In this document: positions 36,031 to 45,554 of the stretch, piece by piece
Layout: every line of letters starts with the position of its first letter
Position numbering within the stretch: the first letter of the stretch is position 1
Source: Candidatus Dormiibacterota bacterium
GTDB lineage: Bacteria > Chloroflexota > Limnocylindria > Limnocylindrales > CSP1-4
Assembly: GCA_035631615.1 (NCBI GenBank)
Contig: DASQIK010000016.1
Location: 64,577 to 128,576 of the forward strand
Reading direction: 5' to 3'
Length of the DNA stretch: 64,000 nt
The notes under the pieces: model-generated
What the model was told of the DNA's origin: nothing
Databases searched by the model: none
Seen by the model: only the letters and a program-made list of their open reading frames with translations
Program-made: the position numbers and the translations under genes

Positions 36031-37410
36031 TTACGCCGTCTCGGCGTACCGCTGGCCTGCATAGGACTGGAACCGGGTCTGGCTCTTCCGGAACCACAGC
36101 TGGATGTCGCCGGTCGGGCCGTTGCGGTGCTTGGCGAGCTTGACGTTGATGACCTCGCCATCGAGGTCCGCGTCCTCGCCGACCTTCTCCTTCTCGCGGT
36201 AGAGGAACACGACGAGGTCCGCATCCTGCTCGATTGCTCCTGACTCACGGAGGTCCGACAGGCGCGGCTCCTTGGACTCGCGCATCTCCGGCTGGCGCGA
36301 CAGCTGCGAGAGGGCGATGACCGGCACGGACAGCTCACGGGCCAGCGCCTTGAGGCCGCGGCTGATCTCGCTGACCTCCTGGACGCGGTTGGCGTCGCGG
36401 TTGGTCGTGGTCGCCTGCATCAGCTGAAGATAGTCGACGATCACGAGGTCCAGGCCCGACTCGGCCTGAAGGCGACGAGCCTTCGTGCGCAGCTCCATCG
36501 AGGTGATGTTTGGTGTGTCGTCCATGTAGAGCGACGCCTCCGAGAGGTCGTTCATTGCCGGCGCGAGTCGCGCGAAGTCGAGCTCCTCGAGGAAGCCGGA
36601 GCGCAAGCGCTTCGAGTCGATGTTGGCGACGCTCGAGAGCAGGCGGAGCACGAGCTGCTCCTTGCTCATCTCGAGGCTGAACACGCCGACGGTCTTCTTC
36701 TCGCGGACGGCCGCGTGCTCGGCAACGTTGAGCGCGAAGCTCGACTTGCCGACCGAAGGTCGGGCAGCGACCACGATCAGGTCGCTCTTCTGGAAGCCGG
36801 TCGTGAGCTGGTCGAGATCCGGGAAACCAGACGCGATGCCGCTCAGCTCGCCGCGGTGGGCGTGCAGGTAGTCGAGGCGGTCATAGGCGGAGTGGAGGAG
36901 CTCCTTGAGCTGGCTGAAGCCGGCGGTGATGCGCCGGTTCGAGACCTGGAACAGCTCCGATTCGGCGCGGTCGATCGCCTCCTGGATCTCGGCCGGATCC
37001 TCGTAGCCGATGCCGGCGATCTTGCCGGCAGCGCCGATCAGGTTCCGGAGCACCGCCTTGCGCTCGACGATCCGGGCGTACTGGACCGCGTGGACCGCGG
37101 TCGGCGTGGCATTCGACAGCTGCGACAGGTAGGAGCGGCCACCGGCCTGCTCGAGGTCCTCGGCACGCTCGAGCGACTCGGCGACGGTCACCAGGTCGAC
37201 GGGCTCGCGGCGCTCGAACAGCTCGAGCATGGCCTTGTAGATGTTCCCGTGGGCCTGGCGGTAGAAGTCCTCGGGGCGAAGGAATTCCGCGATCTCGATG
37301 ATCGTCTCCCGATCGATCAGGATCGCTCCGAGGACCGATTGCTCGGCCTCGAGACTGTGCGGCGGCAGGCGGTCGATCACCAGGAATAGCCTCGGTCGCG
37401 GTTGTGACAC
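36031..37410 (-). CDS. dnaB: Replicative DNA helicase DnaB
   Basis: 'PPHSLEAEQSVLGAILIDRE' N-terminal motif, Walker A 'AARPSVGKSSFALN', and 'DYLQLM'. No intein (459 aa). Confidence 0.9.
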   Translation of the reverse strand: MSQPRPRLFLVIDRLPPHSLEAEQSVLGAILIDRETIIEIAEFLRPEDFYRQAHGNIYKAMLELFERREPVDLVTVAESLERAEDLEQAGGRSYLSQLSNATPTAVHAVQYARIVERKAVLRNLIGAAGKIAGIGYEDPAEIQEAIDRAESELFQVSNRRITAGFSQLKELLHSAYDRLDYLHAHRGELSGIASGFPDLDQLTTGFQKSDLIVVAARPSVGKSSFALNVAEHAAVREKKTVGVFSLEMSKEQLVLRLLSSVANIDSKRLRSGFLEELDFARLAPAMNDLSEASLYMDDTPNITSMELRTKARRLQAESGLDLVIVDYLQLMQATTTNRDANRVQEVSEISRGLKALARELSVPVIALSQLSRQPEMRESKEPRLSDLRESGAIEQDADLVVFLYREKEKVGEDADLDGEVINVKLAKHRNGPTGDIQLWFRKSQTRFQSYAGQRYAETA

Positions 37411-37543: not shown

Positions 37544-37578
37544 GACCGGTCGTCTCGGCCGGTCCGGGACGACCGGTC
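37544..37578 (-). terminator. Perfect 11-bp hairpin at the lexA stop codon (possible terminator)
   Basis: GACCGGTCGTC (37544..37554) pairs with GACGACCGGTC (37568..37578) across a 13-nt loop. It overlaps the lexA TGA. There is no strong T-tract, so function is uncertain. Confidence 0.4.
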
Positions 37579-38227
37579 AGTCCAGCTTGCGGATGACGCC
37601 GATGAGCTTCCCCTGGATCCTGACATCGTCGTAGAACTGGGGCTGATAGGCGGGGTTCGCTGGTTGCAGGCGGACGCGGTCCTTCTCGCGGAAGAAGCGC
37701 TTCAGCGTGACCGCGTTCTCCTCGACCTGGGCGACCACGATGTCGCCGTTGCGGGCGGTGGTCTGCGGCCGGATGAGGACGAAGTCGCCGTCGGCGATGT
37801 GCTCCTCGATCATCGAGTCGCCGCGGACGCGGAGGACGTACGCGTCGCCGCTCGGGGCGAGCAGGTCCGGGACCGACATCGTCTCCGACGCGTCCTGATA
37901 GGCCTCGATCGGGCCGCCGGCCGCGATCTCGCCGATGACCGGCAGGACGTGCGCCTCCGCGGTGATCGACTGCGGCACGAGCTCGTGCGTCAATCCGAGC
38001 TGGATCGCCGCCGTCGGGGTCAGACGGATCGCGCGGGACTGCGCGGCGCCGCGCTCGAGATAGCCCTCGCGCTCGAGCATCTGGAGATGGTGGTGAACGG
38101 CCGACGTCGAACTGAGGCCCACCGCCACGGCGATCTCGCGCACCGACGGCGGGAACCCGCGCGCCCGGAGCGTGCCGGCGATGTAGTGGAGGATCTTCAG
38201 CTTGCGATCCGCGTCGTGTCTCGTCAC
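37577..38227 (-). CDS. lexA: LexA repressor
   Basis: 'GFPPSVREIA' wHTH, cleavage site region 'VIGEIAAGGPIEA', and S24 peptidase 'VRGDSMIEEHIADGDFVLIR' ... 'VTLKRF'. Start at GTG 38227 with GGGAG 6 nt upstream. Confidence 0.9.
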   Translation of the reverse strand: MTRHDADRKLKILHYIAGTLRARGFPPSVREIAVAVGLSSTSAVHHHLQMLEREGYLERGAAQSRAIRLTPTAAIQLGLTHELVPQSITAEAHVLPVIGEIAAGGPIEAYQDASETMSVPDLLAPSGDAYVLRVRGDSMIEEHIADGDFVLIRPQTTARNGDIVVAQVEENAVTLKRFFREKDRVRLQPANPAYQPQFYDDVRIQGKLIGVIRKLD

Positions 38228-38258
38228 TCGTGACTCCCATGGGACGGTGGCCACGAGG

Positions 38259-38286
38259 ATCATACCGAACGGGTGTTCGATGTCAA
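38259..38286 (-). promoter_or_regulatory. lexA promoter with embedded Cheo-type SOS box
   Basis: The minus strand reads TTGACA-TCGAACACCCGTTCGG-TATGAT. The LexA box CGAAC-N4-GTTCG (38266..38279) fills the -35/-10 spacer. Confidence 0.8.
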
Positions 38287-38348
38287 GCACGACGATCCGT
38301 GTCCGACGCTTCGACTGCTAGACTCTGCCGTCCGCTCCACGATGAGGT

Positions 38349-38900
38349 TTGCGAACGGCGATGGCGTCGAAATCGAACGACTCAACCGAGAAGGACACGC
38401 GTGACCGACGGAGCAAGCGCGGACGCAGCCCTGGCCTTCGCCGGGTGATCGCGGCCGCTGCGTTCATGCCGATCGCGACGCGCGCGCCGCTGTACGCCCG
38501 CCTGCTGTGGTCGCTGGTCAAGGACGATCGCACGCCGGCGTCACGCAAGGTCCTCCTCGGCGGCGCGCTCGGCTACGTGGTGCTCGGCCGCGACATCGTG
38601 CCGGACTGGATCCCCGTGCTCGGCCAGCTCGACGACCTCGTCGTCGTGGCGATCGCGACCGAGCTCTTCCTCGATGGTCTCGACGACGTGCTGCTCGCCG
38701 AGAAGCTGCAGGAGGCCGGTATCCCGCGGGCCGCCTACGACGAGGACATCGCGCGCGTTCGAAGGCTCATGCCCGGTCCGATTCGCCGCGTCGCCCGTCG
38801 CATCCCGGACGCAATCCGCCTCGCCACCGACGCGGCTGCCCGATCCGGGCTCCAGCCCGGCCTGCGCCGGTGGATCACCCGCGAAGGCGCCGCGGCCTGA
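38349..38900 (+). CDS. DUF1232 (YkvA-like) membrane protein
   Basis: 'LLGGALGYVVLGRDIVPDWIPVLGQLDDLVVVAIA' is the DUF1232 signature. Divergent from lexA. Start is TTG 38349 or ATG 38361. Confidence 0.65.
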   Translation: MRTAMASKSNDSTEKDTRDRRSKRGRSPGLRRVIAAAAFMPIATRAPLYARLLWSLVKDDRTPASRKVLLGGALGYVVLGRDIVPDWIPVLGQLDDLVVVAIATELFLDGLDDVLLAEKLQEAGIPRAAYDEDIARVRRLMPGPIRRVARRIPDAIRLATDAAARSGLQPGLRRWITREGAAA

Positions 38901-39402: not shown

Positions 39403-39440
39403 GTCGGGTACGGCGGTGCGCCTCGGGCCGCCGGGGCGAT

Positions 39441-39611
39441 CCTGCCAGATTCCACGGTGAGGAGCGTTCGGCTCGCCGGAGAGCGTGGAATGCCTGGACT
39501 AGCGGCGACCTGACGATCGTTTGCCGATGGGGCACGTTCAGACCCAAACACGGAAGCGGCCGCCCTGCTGACAAGCCGCGCCCTGCGCCACCCAGGATGG
39601 AATCTGGCAGG
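39441..39611. repeat. 14-bp perfect inverted repeat pair enclosing 143 nt (candidate structured RNA or small element)
   Basis: CCTGCCAGATTCCA (39441..39454) pairs with TGGAATCTGGCAGG (39598..39611). A third related copy, GTGGAATGCCTGG, lies near 39485. The region is intergenic between rplI and dinB. Confidence 0.7.
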
Positions 39612-39644
39612 TTGCGCATCCCCCTGCGGTATTCGCCAGTCGAG

Positions 39645-39666
39645 TTGTCACGGTTCGGCGTGACAA
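39645..39666 (+). promoter_or_regulatory. Palindrome TTGTCAC-N8-GTGACAA immediately upstream of the dinB start
   Basis: Read directly. It ends 8 nt before GTG 39674. It could be an operator or an RNA hairpin over the ribosome-binding region. Confidence 0.5.
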
Positions 39667-39673
39667 TGGCGGC

Positions 39674-41035
39674 GTGAGCGGGAATCCGCGACGAACGATC
39701 CTCCACGTCGACCTCGACGCGTTCTTTGCCGCGATCGAGCAGCGCGACCATCCGGAGCTGCGCGGCAGGCCGGTCGCCGTCGGGATGGGCGGGACGAACG
39801 ATCGCGGGGTCGTGAGCGCGGCGTCGTATGAGGCCCGGAGGTTCGGCGTCCACTCGGCGATGCCGATCCGGACGGCGCGCCGGCTCTGCCCGGACTGCGT
39901 CTTCGTGCCGGTCGACGGTGCCAAGTACCAGCGCGTCAGTCGCGACGTGATGGCCATCCTCCGGCGATTCACGCCGCTCGTCCAGCCGATCTCGATCGAC
40001 GAGGCGTTCCTCGACGTCACCGGGTCGCGCGCACTGTTCGGCGATGGCGAGGCGATCGCGCGCCGGATCAAGGCCGCGATCCGCGCGGAGCTCGAGCTCA
40101 CGGCCTCGGTCGGCGTCGCGGCGACGAAGCTCGTCGCGAAGATCGGGAGCGACCTGCGCAAGCCCGATGGGCTCGTCGTCGTTCCGCCAGGCGAGGAGGC
40201 GACGTTCCTCGCGCCGTTGCCGATCTCGCGGCTGTGGGGCGTCGGGCCGTCGACGGCCACCGCGCTGCGCGACTTCGGCGTCGCCACGATCGGGGACCTG
40301 GCGAACCTCGATCGATCGGCGCTGGTGCGGCGGTTCGGGAAGCATGGGGCGTCGCTGGTCGATCGAGCCCACGGCCTCGATGGCGACCTGGTCGACGATC
40401 CCGACGCCGCGAAGTCCGTCGGGCACGAGCACACGTTCGACGAGGACACCGCGGACCCCGAGGTGCTCGAGCGCACGTTGCTGGCCATGTCCGAGGGCGT
40501 CTCTGGCCGGCTCCGCCATGCGAGGCTCAAGGCCGCAACGGTGACGGTCAAGATCCGGGACAGCGGCTTCAACACGGTCACCCGCCAGCGCGGGCTGCTC
40601 GAACCGACCGACCTCACCGACCCGATCTGGCGGACGGCGCTCGATCTAGCCCGCCCGGAGACGCGCGGCAAGCGCATCCGCCTGCTCGGCGTCACGGCGT
40701 CGGGGTTCGGCGTGCGCGAGCAGCTCGGCCTGTTCGAGGCCGGGGATGACCGGCAGCGACGCGTCGTCGAGGCCGCCGACGAGCTTCGGGAGCGGTTCGG
40801 GACGCGGGCGATCACCCGGGCACGATTGCTGCGAACCGGGATCCCGGCGCCATTCGAGCGCGACCTCGGGACCGCCGTCGAGCGGCGGGGGGAGCACGCG
40901 GTCGTCGAGGACGAGGCGGCGCGGCGGCGCAAGCGTCGTCCGCCGGGACCCAGGGCGACAGCCGCGCGTGCGACCGCCGAGGACGACATCGGCTCGGACG
41001 ACGTGCTGTCGTCCGACGACGCCGAGGACGAATAG
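39674..41035 (+). CDS. dinB: DNA polymerase IV (Y-family)
   Basis: 'ILHVDLDAFFAAIEQRDHPELRGRPVAVG', 'SIDEAFLDVTG' and 'TASVGVAATKLVAKIGSD' are DinB motifs. About 90-aa charged C-terminal extension. Confidence 0.9.
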   Translation: MSGNPRRTILHVDLDAFFAAIEQRDHPELRGRPVAVGMGGTNDRGVVSAASYEARRFGVHSAMPIRTARRLCPDCVFVPVDGAKYQRVSRDVMAILRRFTPLVQPISIDEAFLDVTGSRALFGDGEAIARRIKAAIRAELELTASVGVAATKLVAKIGSDLRKPDGLVVVPPGEEATFLAPLPISRLWGVGPSTATALRDFGVATIGDLANLDRSALVRRFGKHGASLVDRAHGLDGDLVDDPDAAKSVGHEHTFDEDTADPEVLERTLLAMSEGVSGRLRHARLKAATVTVKIRDSGFNTVTRQRGLLEPTDLTDPIWRTALDLARPETRGKRIRLLGVTASGFGVREQLGLFEAGDDRQRRVVEAADELRERFGTRAITRARLLRTGIPAPFERDLGTAVERRGEHAVVEDEAARRRKRRPPGPRATAARATAEDDIGSDDVLSSDDAEDE

Positions 41036-41044
41036 GCGACGACG

Positions 41045-41662
41045 ATGTCGATTGAGCTCGTCTACGAGACGCACGCCATCACCACCGACAACGAACGCGG
41101 GATCGCGACCGGCTGGCGGCCCGGAAAGCTCTCGCCGGCCGGTCGACGGGGCGCAGAGGAGCTCGGCGCGCGTCGGCAAACGGATGGAACCGAGATCGTT
41201 TACGTCTCTGATCTGCAGCGCGCGTTCGAAACCGCCGTCATTGCCTTCGCGGGCTCGTCGACCCCGATCGTCCGCGATTGGCGCCTGCGCGAATGCAACT
41301 ACGGTCGACTCAATGGGATGCGGCGAGCGAGGCTCGAAGCCCAGCGCACGCAACACCTGGTCGAGCCGTGGCCAGATGGCGAGAGCTACACCGATGTGGT
41401 CTTCCGTACCGCGCAGTTCCTCGAGGAGCTGGCAATGGAGGATTCCGGCCGCGTGCTGGTTATCGCGCATTCGGCGAACCACTGGGCGATCGAGCACCTG
41501 CTGCTCGGCAAGGATCTTGGGGCGCTCGTCGAGGCCGGGATGACGTGGCAACCAGGCTGGGAGTACAACCTGCCGGAGCGCTGGGAGCAGTCTCCTGTAA
41601 CCCGGGTGGCGAGTGACAGCCAAGGTGGCACGGGCCTCTCCGAGGATGCCTTCGAAGCGTGA
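41045..41662 (+). CDS. Histidine phosphatase family protein (phosphoglycerate mutase-like)
   Basis: The N-terminal motif is degenerate: 'ELVYETHAITTDNERGIATGW' has ETH where the family RHG motif normally sits. The downstream 'VLVIAHSANHWAIEHLL' histidine is conserved. Confidence 0.75.
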   Translation: MSIELVYETHAITTDNERGIATGWRPGKLSPAGRRGAEELGARRQTDGTEIVYVSDLQRAFETAVIAFAGSSTPIVRDWRLRECNYGRLNGMRRARLEAQRTQHLVEPWPDGESYTDVVFRTAQFLEELAMEDSGRVLVIAHSANHWAIEHLLLGKDLGALVEAGMTWQPGWEYNLPERWEQSPVTRVASDSQGGTGLSEDAFEA

Positions 41663-41669
41663 GCAGGGC

Positions 41670-41699
41670 TTGACATCGAACACCCGTTCGATCTAGCCT
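41670..41699 (+). promoter_or_regulatory. SOS-box promoter, near-identical copy of the lexA promoter
   Basis: TTGACA (41670..41675), TCGAACACCCGTTCGA (41676..41691), then TAGCCT (41694..41699). The 22-mer CTTGACATCGAACACCCGTTCG is identical to the lexA promoter on the opposite strand. Confidence 0.75.
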
Positions 41700-41780
41700 C
41701 TGGCCGAAACCGAACAGGCGTTCACGGCACCAGTGCCCGGTGACCGGAGCTCGCAATGGCCCCCCGAAAGGAGCCGCGAA

Positions 41781-42056
41781 ATGGCGATGATCCGAGTCGA
41801 GCCGGTCGAGGTCCGGGTTCGTGCCGATTGGTTCGACGGCCGCCCCCGCGAGGTGACCCTCAACGGCCGGCGGCTTCGCGTCCTGGACGTCCTCGGCGTC
41901 CGCGACGAGAGCTCCGCGTTCCCGGTCGTGACCGGACCGCGCACGCTCTTCGAGATCGAGACGGCGGACGCCCGCCTCCAGCTGGCGTTCCGCCATCGAT
42001 CCCGCCGCTGGACGATCGAAGGTGTGGAGACGCACGAGGCGTACAAGGCGGCATAG
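41781..42056 (+). CDS. Small hypothetical protein (91 aa), predicted LexA-regulated
   Basis: ATG 41781 is preceded by GAAAGGAG at a 7-nt spacing. It lies about 80 nt downstream of the SOS-box promoter. Sequence 'MAMIRVEPVEVRVRADWFDGRPREVTLNGRRLRVLDVLG...WTIEGVETHEAYKAA'. No family recognised by eye. Confidence 0.55.
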   Translation: MAMIRVEPVEVRVRADWFDGRPREVTLNGRRLRVLDVLGVRDESSAFPVVTGPRTLFEIETADARLQLAFRHRSRRWTIEGVETHEAYKAA

Positions 42057-42151
42057 CACCCGCCGAATGCCAAACCGCCGACTTCGTGCCCGAGATCGGT
42101 GGCTGACCCGGGCGACTCCACGCCCAGGGTCTTCAAGCGACTCGGGACTGC

Positions 42152-42900
42152 GTGCCGGTACCACGCGGTTCCCGGGTCGCCATAATCGGGAGCGTGCATG
42201 CCCCGTCGTTTCGTGACCTGACGCTCACGGCGTTCGCCGACCGCCTCGCGTCCTCGGATCCGGTTCCGGGCGGGGGGAGCGCATCGGCGGTTGCGGCGGC
42301 ACTCGGGGCATCGCTCGTGGCGATGGTTGCCGGGCTCACGCAGGGCCGACCCAGGTACGCCGAGCACGCCGAGCTCGCAGCGGCCGTCGGGCCGCGGGCA
42401 CGGGCACTTGGGGGCGAGCTCTTCGACCTCGCAGACGCGGACGCGCAGGCATATGCCGCGTGCGCGTTTGCCATGAAGCTGCCGCGGGAGTCGTTCGAGG
42501 ACAAGGAAGCGCGCGACCGCCAGCTCAGGGAGACGGCCGTGGTGGCAGCCGAGGTGCCGCTGCGCTCCGTCGAGCGTTGCCTCGACGCCCTGCGCCTCGC
42601 CGAGCTGCTCGCTGGGCGCTCGAACCGGAATGCTTCCTCGGACCTGCGGGTCGCGTCATTGCTCCTCGAGGCTGCCGCGGACGGCGCTGCCGCCAACGTG
42701 ATCGTCAACCTGCCGCTCGTCGGCCCCGGGGAGTGGACGGACGCCACCGAGGCGCGCACCGGCGAATTGATGCGCGAGGTCGCGCTCGTCGCGAAGCGGG
42801 TGCGAACGGTCGTGGCGTCGGGCGAGGCACGGGCGCCGCTCGCCGACGTGCCAGACGACCTGCCCGACCTGCCGGCCGTCGCGGCGGCCCGGCCGGGAGC

Positions 42901-42904
<4 letters not shown>
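42152..42904 (+). CDS. Formiminotetrahydrofolate cyclodeaminase / methenyl-THF cyclohydrolase family protein (FTCD C-domain-like)
   Basis: 'LTAFADRLASSDPVPGGGSASAVAAALGASLVAMVAGLT' is the cyclodeaminase signature. The start may be GTG 42194 rather than GTG 42152. Confidence 0.75.
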
Positions 42905-43805
<901 letters not shown>

Positions 43806-43809
<4 letters not shown>

Positions 43810-45554
43810 CCACCGGGCCTGTCGCCACCACCGCCGGGACGATGCCATCGGGCACCCCGACCGATCTCGCGATCGCGCGCTCGGTCAAGCCGCGCCCGAT
43901 CATCGACGTCGCCCGCGACCTCGGCCTCCGCGACGACGAGATCGAGCCCTATGGGTCCTCGAAGGCCAAGATCACCCTCGCGGGCATCGAGCGCCTCGAG
44001 CGAGAGCGGCCGCGCGGCAAGTACGTCCTGGTCACGGCGATCAGCCCGACGCCCCTCGGGGAGGGCAAGAGCACGACGACAGTCGGGCTGGCGCAGGGCC
44101 TGAACCGCATCGGGCACAAGGCCGCGGTGTGCATCCGCCAACCGAGCCTTGGCCCCGTCTTCGGGATCAAGGGCGGCGCCGCCGGCGGCGGCTACAGCCA
44201 GGTCATTCCCATGGAGGACTTCAACCTCCACCTGACCGGCGACGTCCACGCGATCGGCGCTGCCCACAACCTCGCGGCGGCGTTCATCGACAACCACATT
44301 CACCACGGCAATGCGCTCGGCATCGACCCGCTGAACGTGCTCTGGCCGCGCGTGCTGGACATCAGCGACCGCGCGCTTCGGAAGGTCGTCATCGGCCTCG
44401 GCGGCAAGGAGAACGGGTACCCGCGCGAGACCGAGTTCGTGATCACGGTCGCATCCGAGGTGATGGCCGTCCTCGCGCTCGCCTCGGACCTCAAGGACCT
44501 GCGGGCGCGTCTCGGGCGGATGGTCCTTGCGACCACCCGGGACGGCAATGCGATCACCGCCGAGGACCTCCACGTCGCCGGCGCGATGGCCGTGCTCCTC
44601 ACCGACGCGATCAAGCCCAATCTGCTGCAGACCCTCGAGGGCGGCCCGGCGTTCGTCCATGCCGGGCCATTCGCGAACATCGCGCACGGGAACAACTCGG
44701 TGCTTGCGGATCGGGTGGCCCTCGCGACCAACGAGATCGTGTGCACGGAGGCGGGATTCGGCGCGGACATGGGCGCCGAGAAGTTCTTCGACATCAAGTG
44801 CCGGGCCTCCGGCCTGCACCCGGACGCGGCCGTCGTCGTCGCGACGATTCGCGCGCTGAAGATGCACGGCGGCGTCGGCAGGATCGTCGCCGGCAAGCCG
44901 CTCGATCCGGCCCTGCTCGCCGAGAACGTCGGCGCGGTCACGAGCGGCGGGGCCAACCTCGCGAAGCAGATCGAGAACGTGCGGCTGTTCAACGTGCCGG
45001 TGGTCGTGGCGATCAACTCGTTCCCGACGGACACGCCCGCCGAGGTCGAGGCCGTGCGCGCCGTCGCGCTCGCGGCCGGCGCCCGCGAGGCGGTGGTCGC
45101 GAACCACTGGGCGAAGGGCGGGGAGGGCGCCGAGGCGCTCGCGACGGCCGTCTGGGCCGCCGCCGAGGTCGGCGCGCCCGACTTCAAGCTCCTCTACCCG
45201 GACGACGCGTCGCTGACCTCGAAGATCGAGACGATCGCGACGCAGGTCTACGGGGCCGACGGCGTCGACCTGAGCCCGGTCGCCGCGAAGCAGCTCGCCC
45301 AGTACGAGGCACTCGGCTACGGGAAGCTGCCGATCTGCATGGCGAAGAGCCAGTACTCGCTCAGCCACGACGCGGCGCTCAAGGGGCGCCCGACCGGCTG
45401 GCGACTCCCGATCCGCGAGGTCCGACTGTCAGCCGGGGCAGGGTTCGTCACGCCGCTCGCCGGCGAGATGCGAACGATGCCGGGGCTGCCGTCGCGGCCC
45501 GGAGGCGAGAACATCGACCTCGACGCCGAGGGCGAGATCGTCGGGCTGTTCTAG
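43806..45554 (+). CDS. fhs: Formate--tetrahydrofolate ligase
   Basis: ATGA overlap with folD. 'VTAISPTPLGEGKSTTTVGLAQGL', 'GPFANIAHGNNS' and 'LPICMAKSQYSLSHD' are FTHFS motifs. Confidence 0.9.

Follow-up and report, generated by a model that had tools for sequence, protein, structure and literature searches.

The stretch of DNA considered here (the window) comprises 64,000 nucleotides of contig DASQIK010000016.1 (assembly GCA_035631615.1), from an uncultured bacterium of the class Limnocylindria in the phylum Chloroflexota. Within it, at 41781-42056 on the forward strand, lies a small gene encoding a 91-aa protein. We find that this gene is very probably a member of the LexA-controlled SOS regulon. 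Two LexA boxes mark its promoter, and in ~0.8 Mb of related DNA the small gene and lexA are the only two genes with LexA-boxed promoters, which is a new observation. New as well, judging from sequence searches and structural models, is the regulated gene itself: it belongs to no known family, its predicted fold has no neighbor, and it occurs in one class only. We slightly favor the notion that the gene encodes an SOS effector from a new family, one of the checkpoint or tolerance type, whose expression is tightly controlled by two LexA operators and whose lifetime is kept short by a C-terminal degron.

Promoter and operators

The promoter of the small gene is compact. A −35 hexamer, TTGACA (41670-41675, +), is followed at an 18-nt spacing by a −10 hexamer, TAGCCT (41694-41699, +). 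LexA box 1, CGAACACCCGTTCG (41677-41690, +), is of the Cheo type, CGAAC-N4-GTTCG, and fills the spacer between the two hexamers. LexA box 2, CGAACAGGCGTTCA (41711-41724, +), lies 34 bp 3′ of box 1, at approximately +5 to +18 of the inferred transcript, and agrees with CGAAC-N4-GTTCG at 13/14 positions. Thus, one predicted operator overlaps the promoter and the other sits at the inferred 5′ end of the transcript. A Shine–Dalgarno sequence, GAAAGGAG (41766-41773, +), precedes the start codon, and its AAGGAG is invariant or nearly so in the alignment of homologs. An earlier sequence-only reading of the window had described the −35 hexamer with its Cheo-type box at both this promoter and that of lexA, the −10 hexamer at its 18-nt spacing, and a strong Shine–Dalgarno sequence ahead of an open reading frame (ORF) at 41781. 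All of these features are present, and the Shine–Dalgarno sequence is conserved in relatives. Box 2 was absent from that description.

The same motif occurs at lexA. The lexA gene occupies 37577-38227 on the reverse strand, with its start placed at a GTG near 38227 after GGGAG, and its product matches Pfam LexA_DNA_bind and Peptidase_S24 as well as TIGR00498 (196 bits). Its promoter (38266-38288, −) runs from TTGACA through an exact LexA box to TATGAT (38264-38259), a near-consensus −10 element, an arrangement in which the motif would autoregulate lexA in the same genome. A box between the promoter hexamers of lexA is likewise present in 48 related loci.

The two promoters share an identical 23-nt stretch, GCTTGACATCGAACACCCGTTCG, which holds the −35 hexamer and the box; it reads 41668-41690 on the forward strand and 38266-38288 on the reverse strand. 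The pair constitutes inverted repeat I4, with 100% identity over 23 nt, and shuffling predicts 0 such matches. The identity had earlier been given as a 22-mer and interpreted as a near-exact copy of the lexA promoter. That description is accurate for this genome, with one nucleotide added, but it does not extend to the lineage: in most related genomes, the N4 spacer of the lexA box differs from that of box 1. Because the two spacers are equal in only a minority of genomes, we take the identity, on this comparison, to be a coincidence of two near-consensus sites and not a conserved copy.

LexA boxes are rare in the window and conspicuously placed. Exact CGAAC-N4-GTTCG occurs at two sites in the 64 kb, 38266 and 41677. 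The GAAC-N4-GTTC core occurs three times against 0.6 expected, once at lexA and twice at the small-gene promoter, box 2 being the third site. Relatives carry the more telling evidence. Specifically, paired GAAC-N4-GTTC boxes lie no more than 200 nt before the start codon in 82/82 orthologous loci, with an inter-box spacing of 33-36 bp (mode 34), and box 2 is also present in distant subfamilies. Across these promoters, the box arms are invariant in all 82 loci, the −35 hexamer is near-invariant among 74 distinct contexts, and the −10 element always conforms to TAnnnT, reading TATGAT in a second subfamily; the four spacer bases of the box and the flanking sequence drift. The layout of TTGAC, box 1, −10, and box 2 is kept across three subfamilies that are only ~35% identical. 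A census of the core in 77 related loci (773 kb) returned 204 sites, of which 154 precede the small gene, 48 belong to lexA, and 2 lie elsewhere. With 202/204 sites at lexA or paired before the small gene, support for membership in the LexA regulon is strong, and phylogenetic footprinting thereby bears out the earlier proposal of a new SOS-regulon gene. LexA control of the small gene is, in our view, supported as far as comparative genomics permits.

Three loci show altered promoters. In L090 (660-693) and L091 (2670-2711), box 1 stands alone and an ATG follows 7 nt past a −10 element, TATTGT; box 2, the leader hairpin described below, and the Shine–Dalgarno sequence are missing. In L092 (499-1824, 1960-2030), a DDE transposase gene has replaced the promoter half that holds the −35 hexamer and box 1, and box 2 alone is left.

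The gene and its product

The ORF at 41781-42056 has abundant homologs. Substitutions relative to close relatives fall mainly at third codon positions, and the ratio of nonsynonymous to synonymous substitution rates (dN/dS) is 0.03-0.13. By this codon-level measure, the ORF is a real gene under strong purifying selection. A search of 5.8 billion proteins returned 616 clusters at E <= 1e-3; the best 120 of these are 77-95% identical to the query, and those with names are hypothetical proteins. When GTDB species were scanned with one genome each, 244 genomes proved to carry a relative; the 80 loci retained from them come from metagenome-assembled genomes (MAGs) of Limnocylindria/Chloroflexota. 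The second subfamily, whose members have 87 aa and are ~35-40% identical, yielded 697 further clusters at E <= 10 when used as the query; few of them carry an organism name, and those that do are Chloroflexota or Limnocylindria. With more than 1,000 homolog clusters in total, the ORF is kept in relatives across these subfamilies, a point that the sequence-only reading had singled out for checking. Finally, HMMER was run exhaustively against 1.84 billion cluster representatives and matched only 142 clusters, which indicates that the family is confined to the Limnocylindria lineage. On the evidence of these searches, the gene is restricted to that class.

A handful of contigs bear foreign labels. 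L011, L018, L024, L038, L043, and L075 are assigned to Patescibacteria, Deferrimicrobiaceae, Binatia, Sulfomarinibacteraceae, Eisenbacteria, or Methylomirabilota, yet they have the Limnocylindria gene order and encode proteins that are 66-84% identical. These contigs, which come from the SMAG MAG set, are probably mis-binned. Mobile elements show no trace of the gene: IMG/VR viral contigs contain no relatives of the 91-aa protein, a plasmid search gave no match to it, no PHROG family matches it, and the PADLOC match discussed below is at chance level.

The protein has a mass of 10.5 kDa and an isoelectric point (pI) of 9.9, and it lacks a hydrophobic segment. Its product had earlier been said to match nothing recognizable, and database searches agree: Pfam, NCBIfam, and PHROG scans assign it to no family. 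When the scans, including PADLOC, were extended to 34-44 divergent relatives, they gave sub-threshold matches only (HigB_toxin, DUF6504, Peptidase_S6, and TGT_C2). A sequence-profile search of the PDB also returned nothing. Nor does any Pfam or NCBIfam family, PDB sequence, or fold match connect the protein to the known small SOS effectors SulA, DinI, YebG, UmuD, ImuA, or those of the YneA type. Longer family members that look like fusions (P0122, P0149, P0165, P0176, P0180, P0226, P0241, and P0255) are frameshifted or chimeric gene models and not real fusions.

Of the sub-threshold matches, that to DUF6504 (PF20114) deserves mention. Three of 34 divergent family members match this profile weakly, the best being P0188, whose residues 15-74 align to profile positions 20-85 of 103 (E 0.011, 16.4 bits). 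All of these matches fall below the 24.2-bit gathering threshold, the window protein itself has none, and DUF6504 is itself uncharacterized. A homolog search with the matching subfamily found only further Limnocylindria proteins, and a literature search for DUF6504 found no mention of it. The family may be a remote relative of DUF6504.

Two AlphaFold models, built from alignments of 27 and 65 sequences, both show six beta strands and lack any substantial helix; the second model adds a four-residue turn in the low-confidence C-terminal tail. Their predicted local distance difference test scores (pLDDT) are 84.9 and 86.4, respectively. Foldseek comparison of both models with the PDB found no neighbor (best E 0.3, template modeling score [TM] <= 0.41), and comparison with BFVD found only uncharacterized phage proteins (TM 0.43-0.55). 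The residues conserved in all subfamilies are V13, P22, R41, E43, A46, G52, P53, R54, and W77. Six of these, from R41 to R54, lie in or beside a single long loop between strands 3 and 4, with the pattern VR(D/E)E-x-AA(Y/F)P-x3-GPR. The clustering of conserved residues in and around one modeled loop suggests a binding surface and not a catalytic site.

Leader hairpin, C-terminal tail, and sequence past the stop codon

Between box 2 and the Shine–Dalgarno sequence, the 5′ untranslated region has the potential to form a hairpin (41725-41746, +) with stem arms CGGCACC and GGUG(A)CCG enclosing the 7-nt loop AGUGCCC. The loop is near-invariant: its consensus, (A/C)GUGCCC, occupies the equivalent position in L001-L097. 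The stem, by contrast with the loop, varies by lineage, and its arms include CGGCACC/GGUG-A-CCG, UCGGUC/GGCCGA, UGUCG/CGACA, CAUCCG/CGGGUG, and AUCCGG/CCGGAU. In the second subfamily, the 5′ arm of the hairpin is the right half of LexA box 2. Folds constrained to enclose the motif average -8.6 kcal/mol versus -4.6 for flank shuffles, and 23 of 49 distinct leader sequences, which are related to each other, reach <= 0.05 against such shuffles. A scan of the leader against Rfam gave no match, and the loop motif, CCAGTGCCCGG, has no second copy elsewhere in the window. We consider the evidence for the hairpin moderate and short of proof. The hairpin might bind a protein or influence the stability of the mRNA.

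The protein ends in two alanines (codons at 42048-42053, +). Specifically, -AA terminates 119/120 close homologs and -VA the remaining one. Among 71 divergent representatives, 38 end in -AA, and the others end mainly in -VA or are broken gene models. The conserved non-polar terminal dipeptide, -AA or -VA, conforms to the ssrA-like C-motif 1 and is kept despite tails that vary in length and sequence. With an alanine frequency of 0.12, the chance expectation for -AA is ~1.4%. Flynn and colleagues are said to have established in 2001 and 2003 that ClpX recognizes the ssrA tag chiefly by its free C-terminal Ala-Ala. The tail of the 91-aa protein is a reasonably likely candidate for an ssrA-like ClpXP degron. 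A tmRNA, the source of the native ssrA tag, was sought in the window and in 91 loci, and none was found.

Past the stop codon, a GC-rich hairpin (42105-42131, +; z = -2.47 for the region) is a possible terminator without a U-tract. Because of this hairpin, and because the spacing to the downstream FTCD_C gene is variable and interrupted, we argue that the small gene is mainly monocistronic.

Gene neighborhood

Gene order around the small gene is well kept. In the main subfamily, it is dnaB–lexA / DUF1232–rplI–dinB–ORF–FTCD_C–folD–fhs throughout. In the second subfamily, lexA, an alkZ-like gene where present, and dinB share one orientation, with the ORF, FTCD_C, and folD coming next; a third group has the same order. 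In every subfamily, the one-carbon cluster (FTCD_C/cyclodeaminase-like, folD, and fhs; 42152-45554 in the window) follows the small gene on the same strand.

The ancestral upstream neighbor is dinB, encoding DNA polymerase IV (Pol IV; 39674-41035, +). Here, as elsewhere in the main subfamily, dinB lacks its own LexA box and is apparently co-transcribed with DUF1232–rplI, divergently from the lexA promoter (38233-38349 in the window). In the second subfamily (L083, L086, L088, and L091), lexA, the alkZ-like glycosylase gene, and dinB lie behind the lexA box. Pol IV regulation seems, from these arrangements, to differ between the sister lineages.

The small gene had been placed just downstream of dinB. 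That is its ancestral position, as relatives show, but in the window a histidine-phosphatase gene (Pfam His_Phos_1; 41045-41662, +) intervenes between dinB and the SOS promoter. The insertion is confined to this window and one close relative, L004. Over its last ~17 codons (..SDSQGGTGLSEDAFEA), the phosphatase gene shows homology to the C-terminal tail found on the DinB proteins of relatives (..RRDSQADTPPSEDAFDD.., ..SEDAFD..). Thus, the insertion entered dinB at its 3′ end, and ~50 bp of conserved sequence stayed in place. These ~50 bp before the SOS promoter are conserved at the DNA level whichever gene ends there. An imperfect inverted repeat, CGTGACAGC-N3-GCTGNCACG, lies in the same region, just 5′ of the promoter (41613-41662; 7802-7891 in L001).

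Two further features of the neighborhood are of note. The rplI–dinB spacer (39403-39673) is 270 nt long here versus ~40-100 nt in several relatives. Within it, two arms ~100 nt apart, CCTGCCAGATTCCA ... TGGAATCTGGCAGG, form a perfect inverted repeat of 14 bp (39441-39475 / 39577-39611). No Rfam family matches the repeat, and its stability is unremarkable; possibly it is a small element that was inserted there. Finally, dnaB of L088 (1-1893) contains an intein with a LAGLIDADG homing endonuclease (Pfam Intein_splicing and LAGLIDADG_3), and the window dnaB (36031-37410) does not.

Proposed mechanism and alternatives

The mechanism that we propose starts from what is described above: operators that are conserved, a coding sequence under constraint, a distribution restricted to one class, and no match by homology or fold. 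From the operators, we infer LexA binding and induction by DNA damage. LexA at box 1 would occlude RNA polymerase. Box 2, at the transcript start and about three helical turns from box 1, would probably make repression cooperative and very tight. On DNA damage, RecA-stimulated self-cleavage of LexA would free the promoter. The resulting mRNA would begin with the conserved hairpin, whose loop points to further post-transcriptional control. Its product would be a small, soluble, all-beta protein of a family without known relatives, and the Ala-Ala end would most likely direct fast degradation of the ClpXP type, so that the protein would be gone once LexA re-accumulates. We picture a non-enzymatic, binding-type effector acting via the conserved loop, since dose-sensitive SOS effectors, E. 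coli RecN and SulA among them, typically combine multiple operators with a C-terminal degron.

What such an effector would act upon can be proposed only tentatively. A damage checkpoint or tolerance modulator, that is, an inhibitor of division or replication, is our best guess. We favor a binding protein of this kind because dual operators, a structured leader, and a degron typify products that are harmful when mis-expressed. Stated in full, the proposal would be a Chloroflexota SOS checkpoint or damage-tolerance effector, a soluble beta-sheet protein whose fold is new. By binding one of the core machines (FtsZ, DnaB, the clamp, RecA, or DinB), it would halt division or replication or would gate Pol IV. 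Three layers would restrain it: paired LexA operators, a hairpin in the leader whose loop is sequence specific, and a tail recognized by ClpXP. So complete a picture is doubtful in its particulars.

Several points weigh against the proposed effector. The −10 element of the small gene is weak. The lineage represented by L090 and L091, within the 87-aa subfamily, has a single box and a predicted leaderless mRNA, and the dual operator and the hairpin are thus not indispensable. RNAalifold, applied to a plain MAFFT alignment of the leaders, missed the hairpin and recovered the LexA palindrome only, and folding the whole leader as a single sequence gives no unusual stability (z = 0.06). The tail of the family, K/R/Q-A-A, differs from the canonical L-A-A. 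All family sequences derive from MAGs. Finally, the known SOS division inhibitors of Gram-positive-type bacteria are membrane proteins, and the 91-aa protein is soluble.

The main rival holds that the protein is an accessory or regulatory subunit of Pol IV, one that binds DinB, or DinB at the clamp, and tunes translesion synthesis during the SOS response. The gene directly follows dinB in ~90 loci from three subfamilies, including loci with differing upstream contexts, and in the second subfamily it closes the lexA–(alkZ-like)–dinB damage cluster. The entire 10-kb block is syntenic, however, and FTCD_C–folD is an equally constant neighbor. Moreover, the small gene has its own promoter, dinB of the main subfamily lacks a box, and a phosphatase gene is tolerated between the two. 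Mirror-tree analysis of 52 loci gives no DinB-specific signal of co-evolution: with Fhs controlled for, the partial correlation is 0.35 for DinB, no higher than the 0.56 of FTCD_C or the 0.32 of FolD. Genuine DinB fusions are not found, the long ones being frameshifted gene models, and a clamp-binding-type motif is not evident. The link to translesion synthesis that the sequence-only reading had raised is thus a possibility drawn from gene adjacency; we regard a Pol IV subunit as unlikely. A role in modulating the RecA filament or LexA cleavage, which would time the SOS response as DinI, RecX, or PsiB do, is an analogy that we consider improbable. The protein is small, soluble, basic, and predicted to be SOS induced, its gene lies near lexA, and it has a conserved exposed loop; against this, it resembles neither DinI nor RecX nor any PDB entry in sequence or fold, which leaves the comparison to analogy.

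The remaining rivals question the gene's function or its regulation. If the LexA promoter mainly served the one-carbon genes (FTCD_C/fchA-like, folD, and fhs), thereby raising nucleotide precursors, the ORF would be merely the first cistron. In every subfamily, FTCD_C–folD lies next on the same strand, the gaps being as short as 68-96 nt, and no U-tract terminator was found. The stable GC-rich hairpin past the stop codon argues otherwise, as do gaps that range from ~70 to >500 nt and inserts of 2-3 kb in L033, L040, L071, L076, and L078. Strong purifying selection on the ORF and its degron-like tail indicate, in addition, that the ORF has a function of its own, and read-through as the main purpose of the promoter has little probability. 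An SOS-induced toxin of the RelE/HigB type, analogous to yafNO in the E. coli dinB operon, is effectively excluded. The idea draws on a weak match of residues 46-89 to Pfam HigB_toxin (PF09907; 17.2 bits, E 0.006) and a weak PADLOC match to PD-Lambda-2_A (E 0.047). The former falls well short of the gathering threshold of 27 bits and is found in 1/34 family members; the all-beta model lacks the helices of RelE, and RelE/HigB chains align to it with TM of only 0.24-0.30. No antitoxin gene adjoins the small gene, and no locus contains a small partner ORF. Lastly, the boxes could be chance or vestigial sequences and the gene not LexA regulated. In favor of that possibility are the weak −10 element and the observation that the box motif, when one mismatch is permitted, is not rare (9 in the window versus 4.3 expected). 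Exact cores in the window are nonetheless confined to lexA and the small-gene promoter, and among the orthologous promoters the boxes are paired, fixed in position, and conserved while flanks and N4 drift. Chance, too, is for all practical purposes excluded.

Significance and comparison with known systems

Detailed knowledge of SOS regulons comes from a small number of cultured phyla. Limnocylindria, which are plentiful in soils and fresh waters, are uncultured, and a literature search on LexA in Chloroflexi or Limnocylindria returned nothing relevant. Because it and lexA have the sole LexA-boxed promoters in the related DNA, the small gene provides the clearest entry point to the SOS response of Limnocylindria. 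It offers a compact package, namely, a 90-aa protein, a 60-bp dual operator, and a 22-nt hairpin, in which DNA damage could be coupled in a new way to cell-cycle or polymerase control. If its fold and target prove new, one more family will join the few known SOS effectors.

Lineage-specific, LexA-regulated hypothetical proteins are a familiar result of comparative SOS studies. To our knowledge, each well-studied SOS regulon holds a lineage-specific small effector, usually a division inhibitor, that cannot be found by homology. SulA, YneA, ChiZ/Rv2719c, DivS, SosA, and SidA/DidA are small, LexA-controlled, lineage-restricted, non-homologous between phyla, and proteolytically unstable. The 91-aa protein resembles these checkpoint proteins in being small, LexA-boxed, and lineage-restricted. 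It differs in that it shares no sequence or fold similarity with them and has no transmembrane segment, whereas most of the non-proteobacterial ones do.

Small genes adjoin a Y-family polymerase gene in an SOS context in E. coli as well, both in dinB-yafN-yafO-yafP and in UmuD/UmuC. The gene described here differs in having its own promoter and operators and no homology to YafN, YafO, YafP, or UmuD. The DinB of PMC10693628 is that of the DinB/YfiT superfamily and not Pol IV. Another E. coli parallel is recN, which has three SOS boxes and whose product is degraded by ClpXP via C-terminal signals, such that it is present in damaged cells only (PMC10714372, PMC10165496). Common to recN and the small gene are several LexA operators, which would make repression tight, and a C-terminal tag for rapid removal, with proteolysis of the small protein a candidate feature. 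The proteins themselves are different: RecN is a 553-aa ATPase resembling structural maintenance of chromosomes (SMC) proteins, and the members of the small family are 88-91 aa long, all-beta in prediction, and unrelated to it in sequence.

The closest likeness is to the Cheo-box LexA regulon, with CGAAC-N4-GTTCG in Bacillus subtilis and Staphylococcus aureus and TCGAAC-N4-GTTCGA in mycobacteria; LexA boxes of Gram-positive-type bacteria have been tabulated (PMC9578287). The operator is the same here, it overlaps a sigma-70-type promoter, and the same box would autoregulate lexA too. The differences are that the host belongs to an uncultured Chloroflexota class and that none of the LexA regulons described so far includes a counterpart of the regulated gene. 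The regulatory system is thus ordinary LexA/Cheo-box biology, and the novelty lies in the gene that it regulates.

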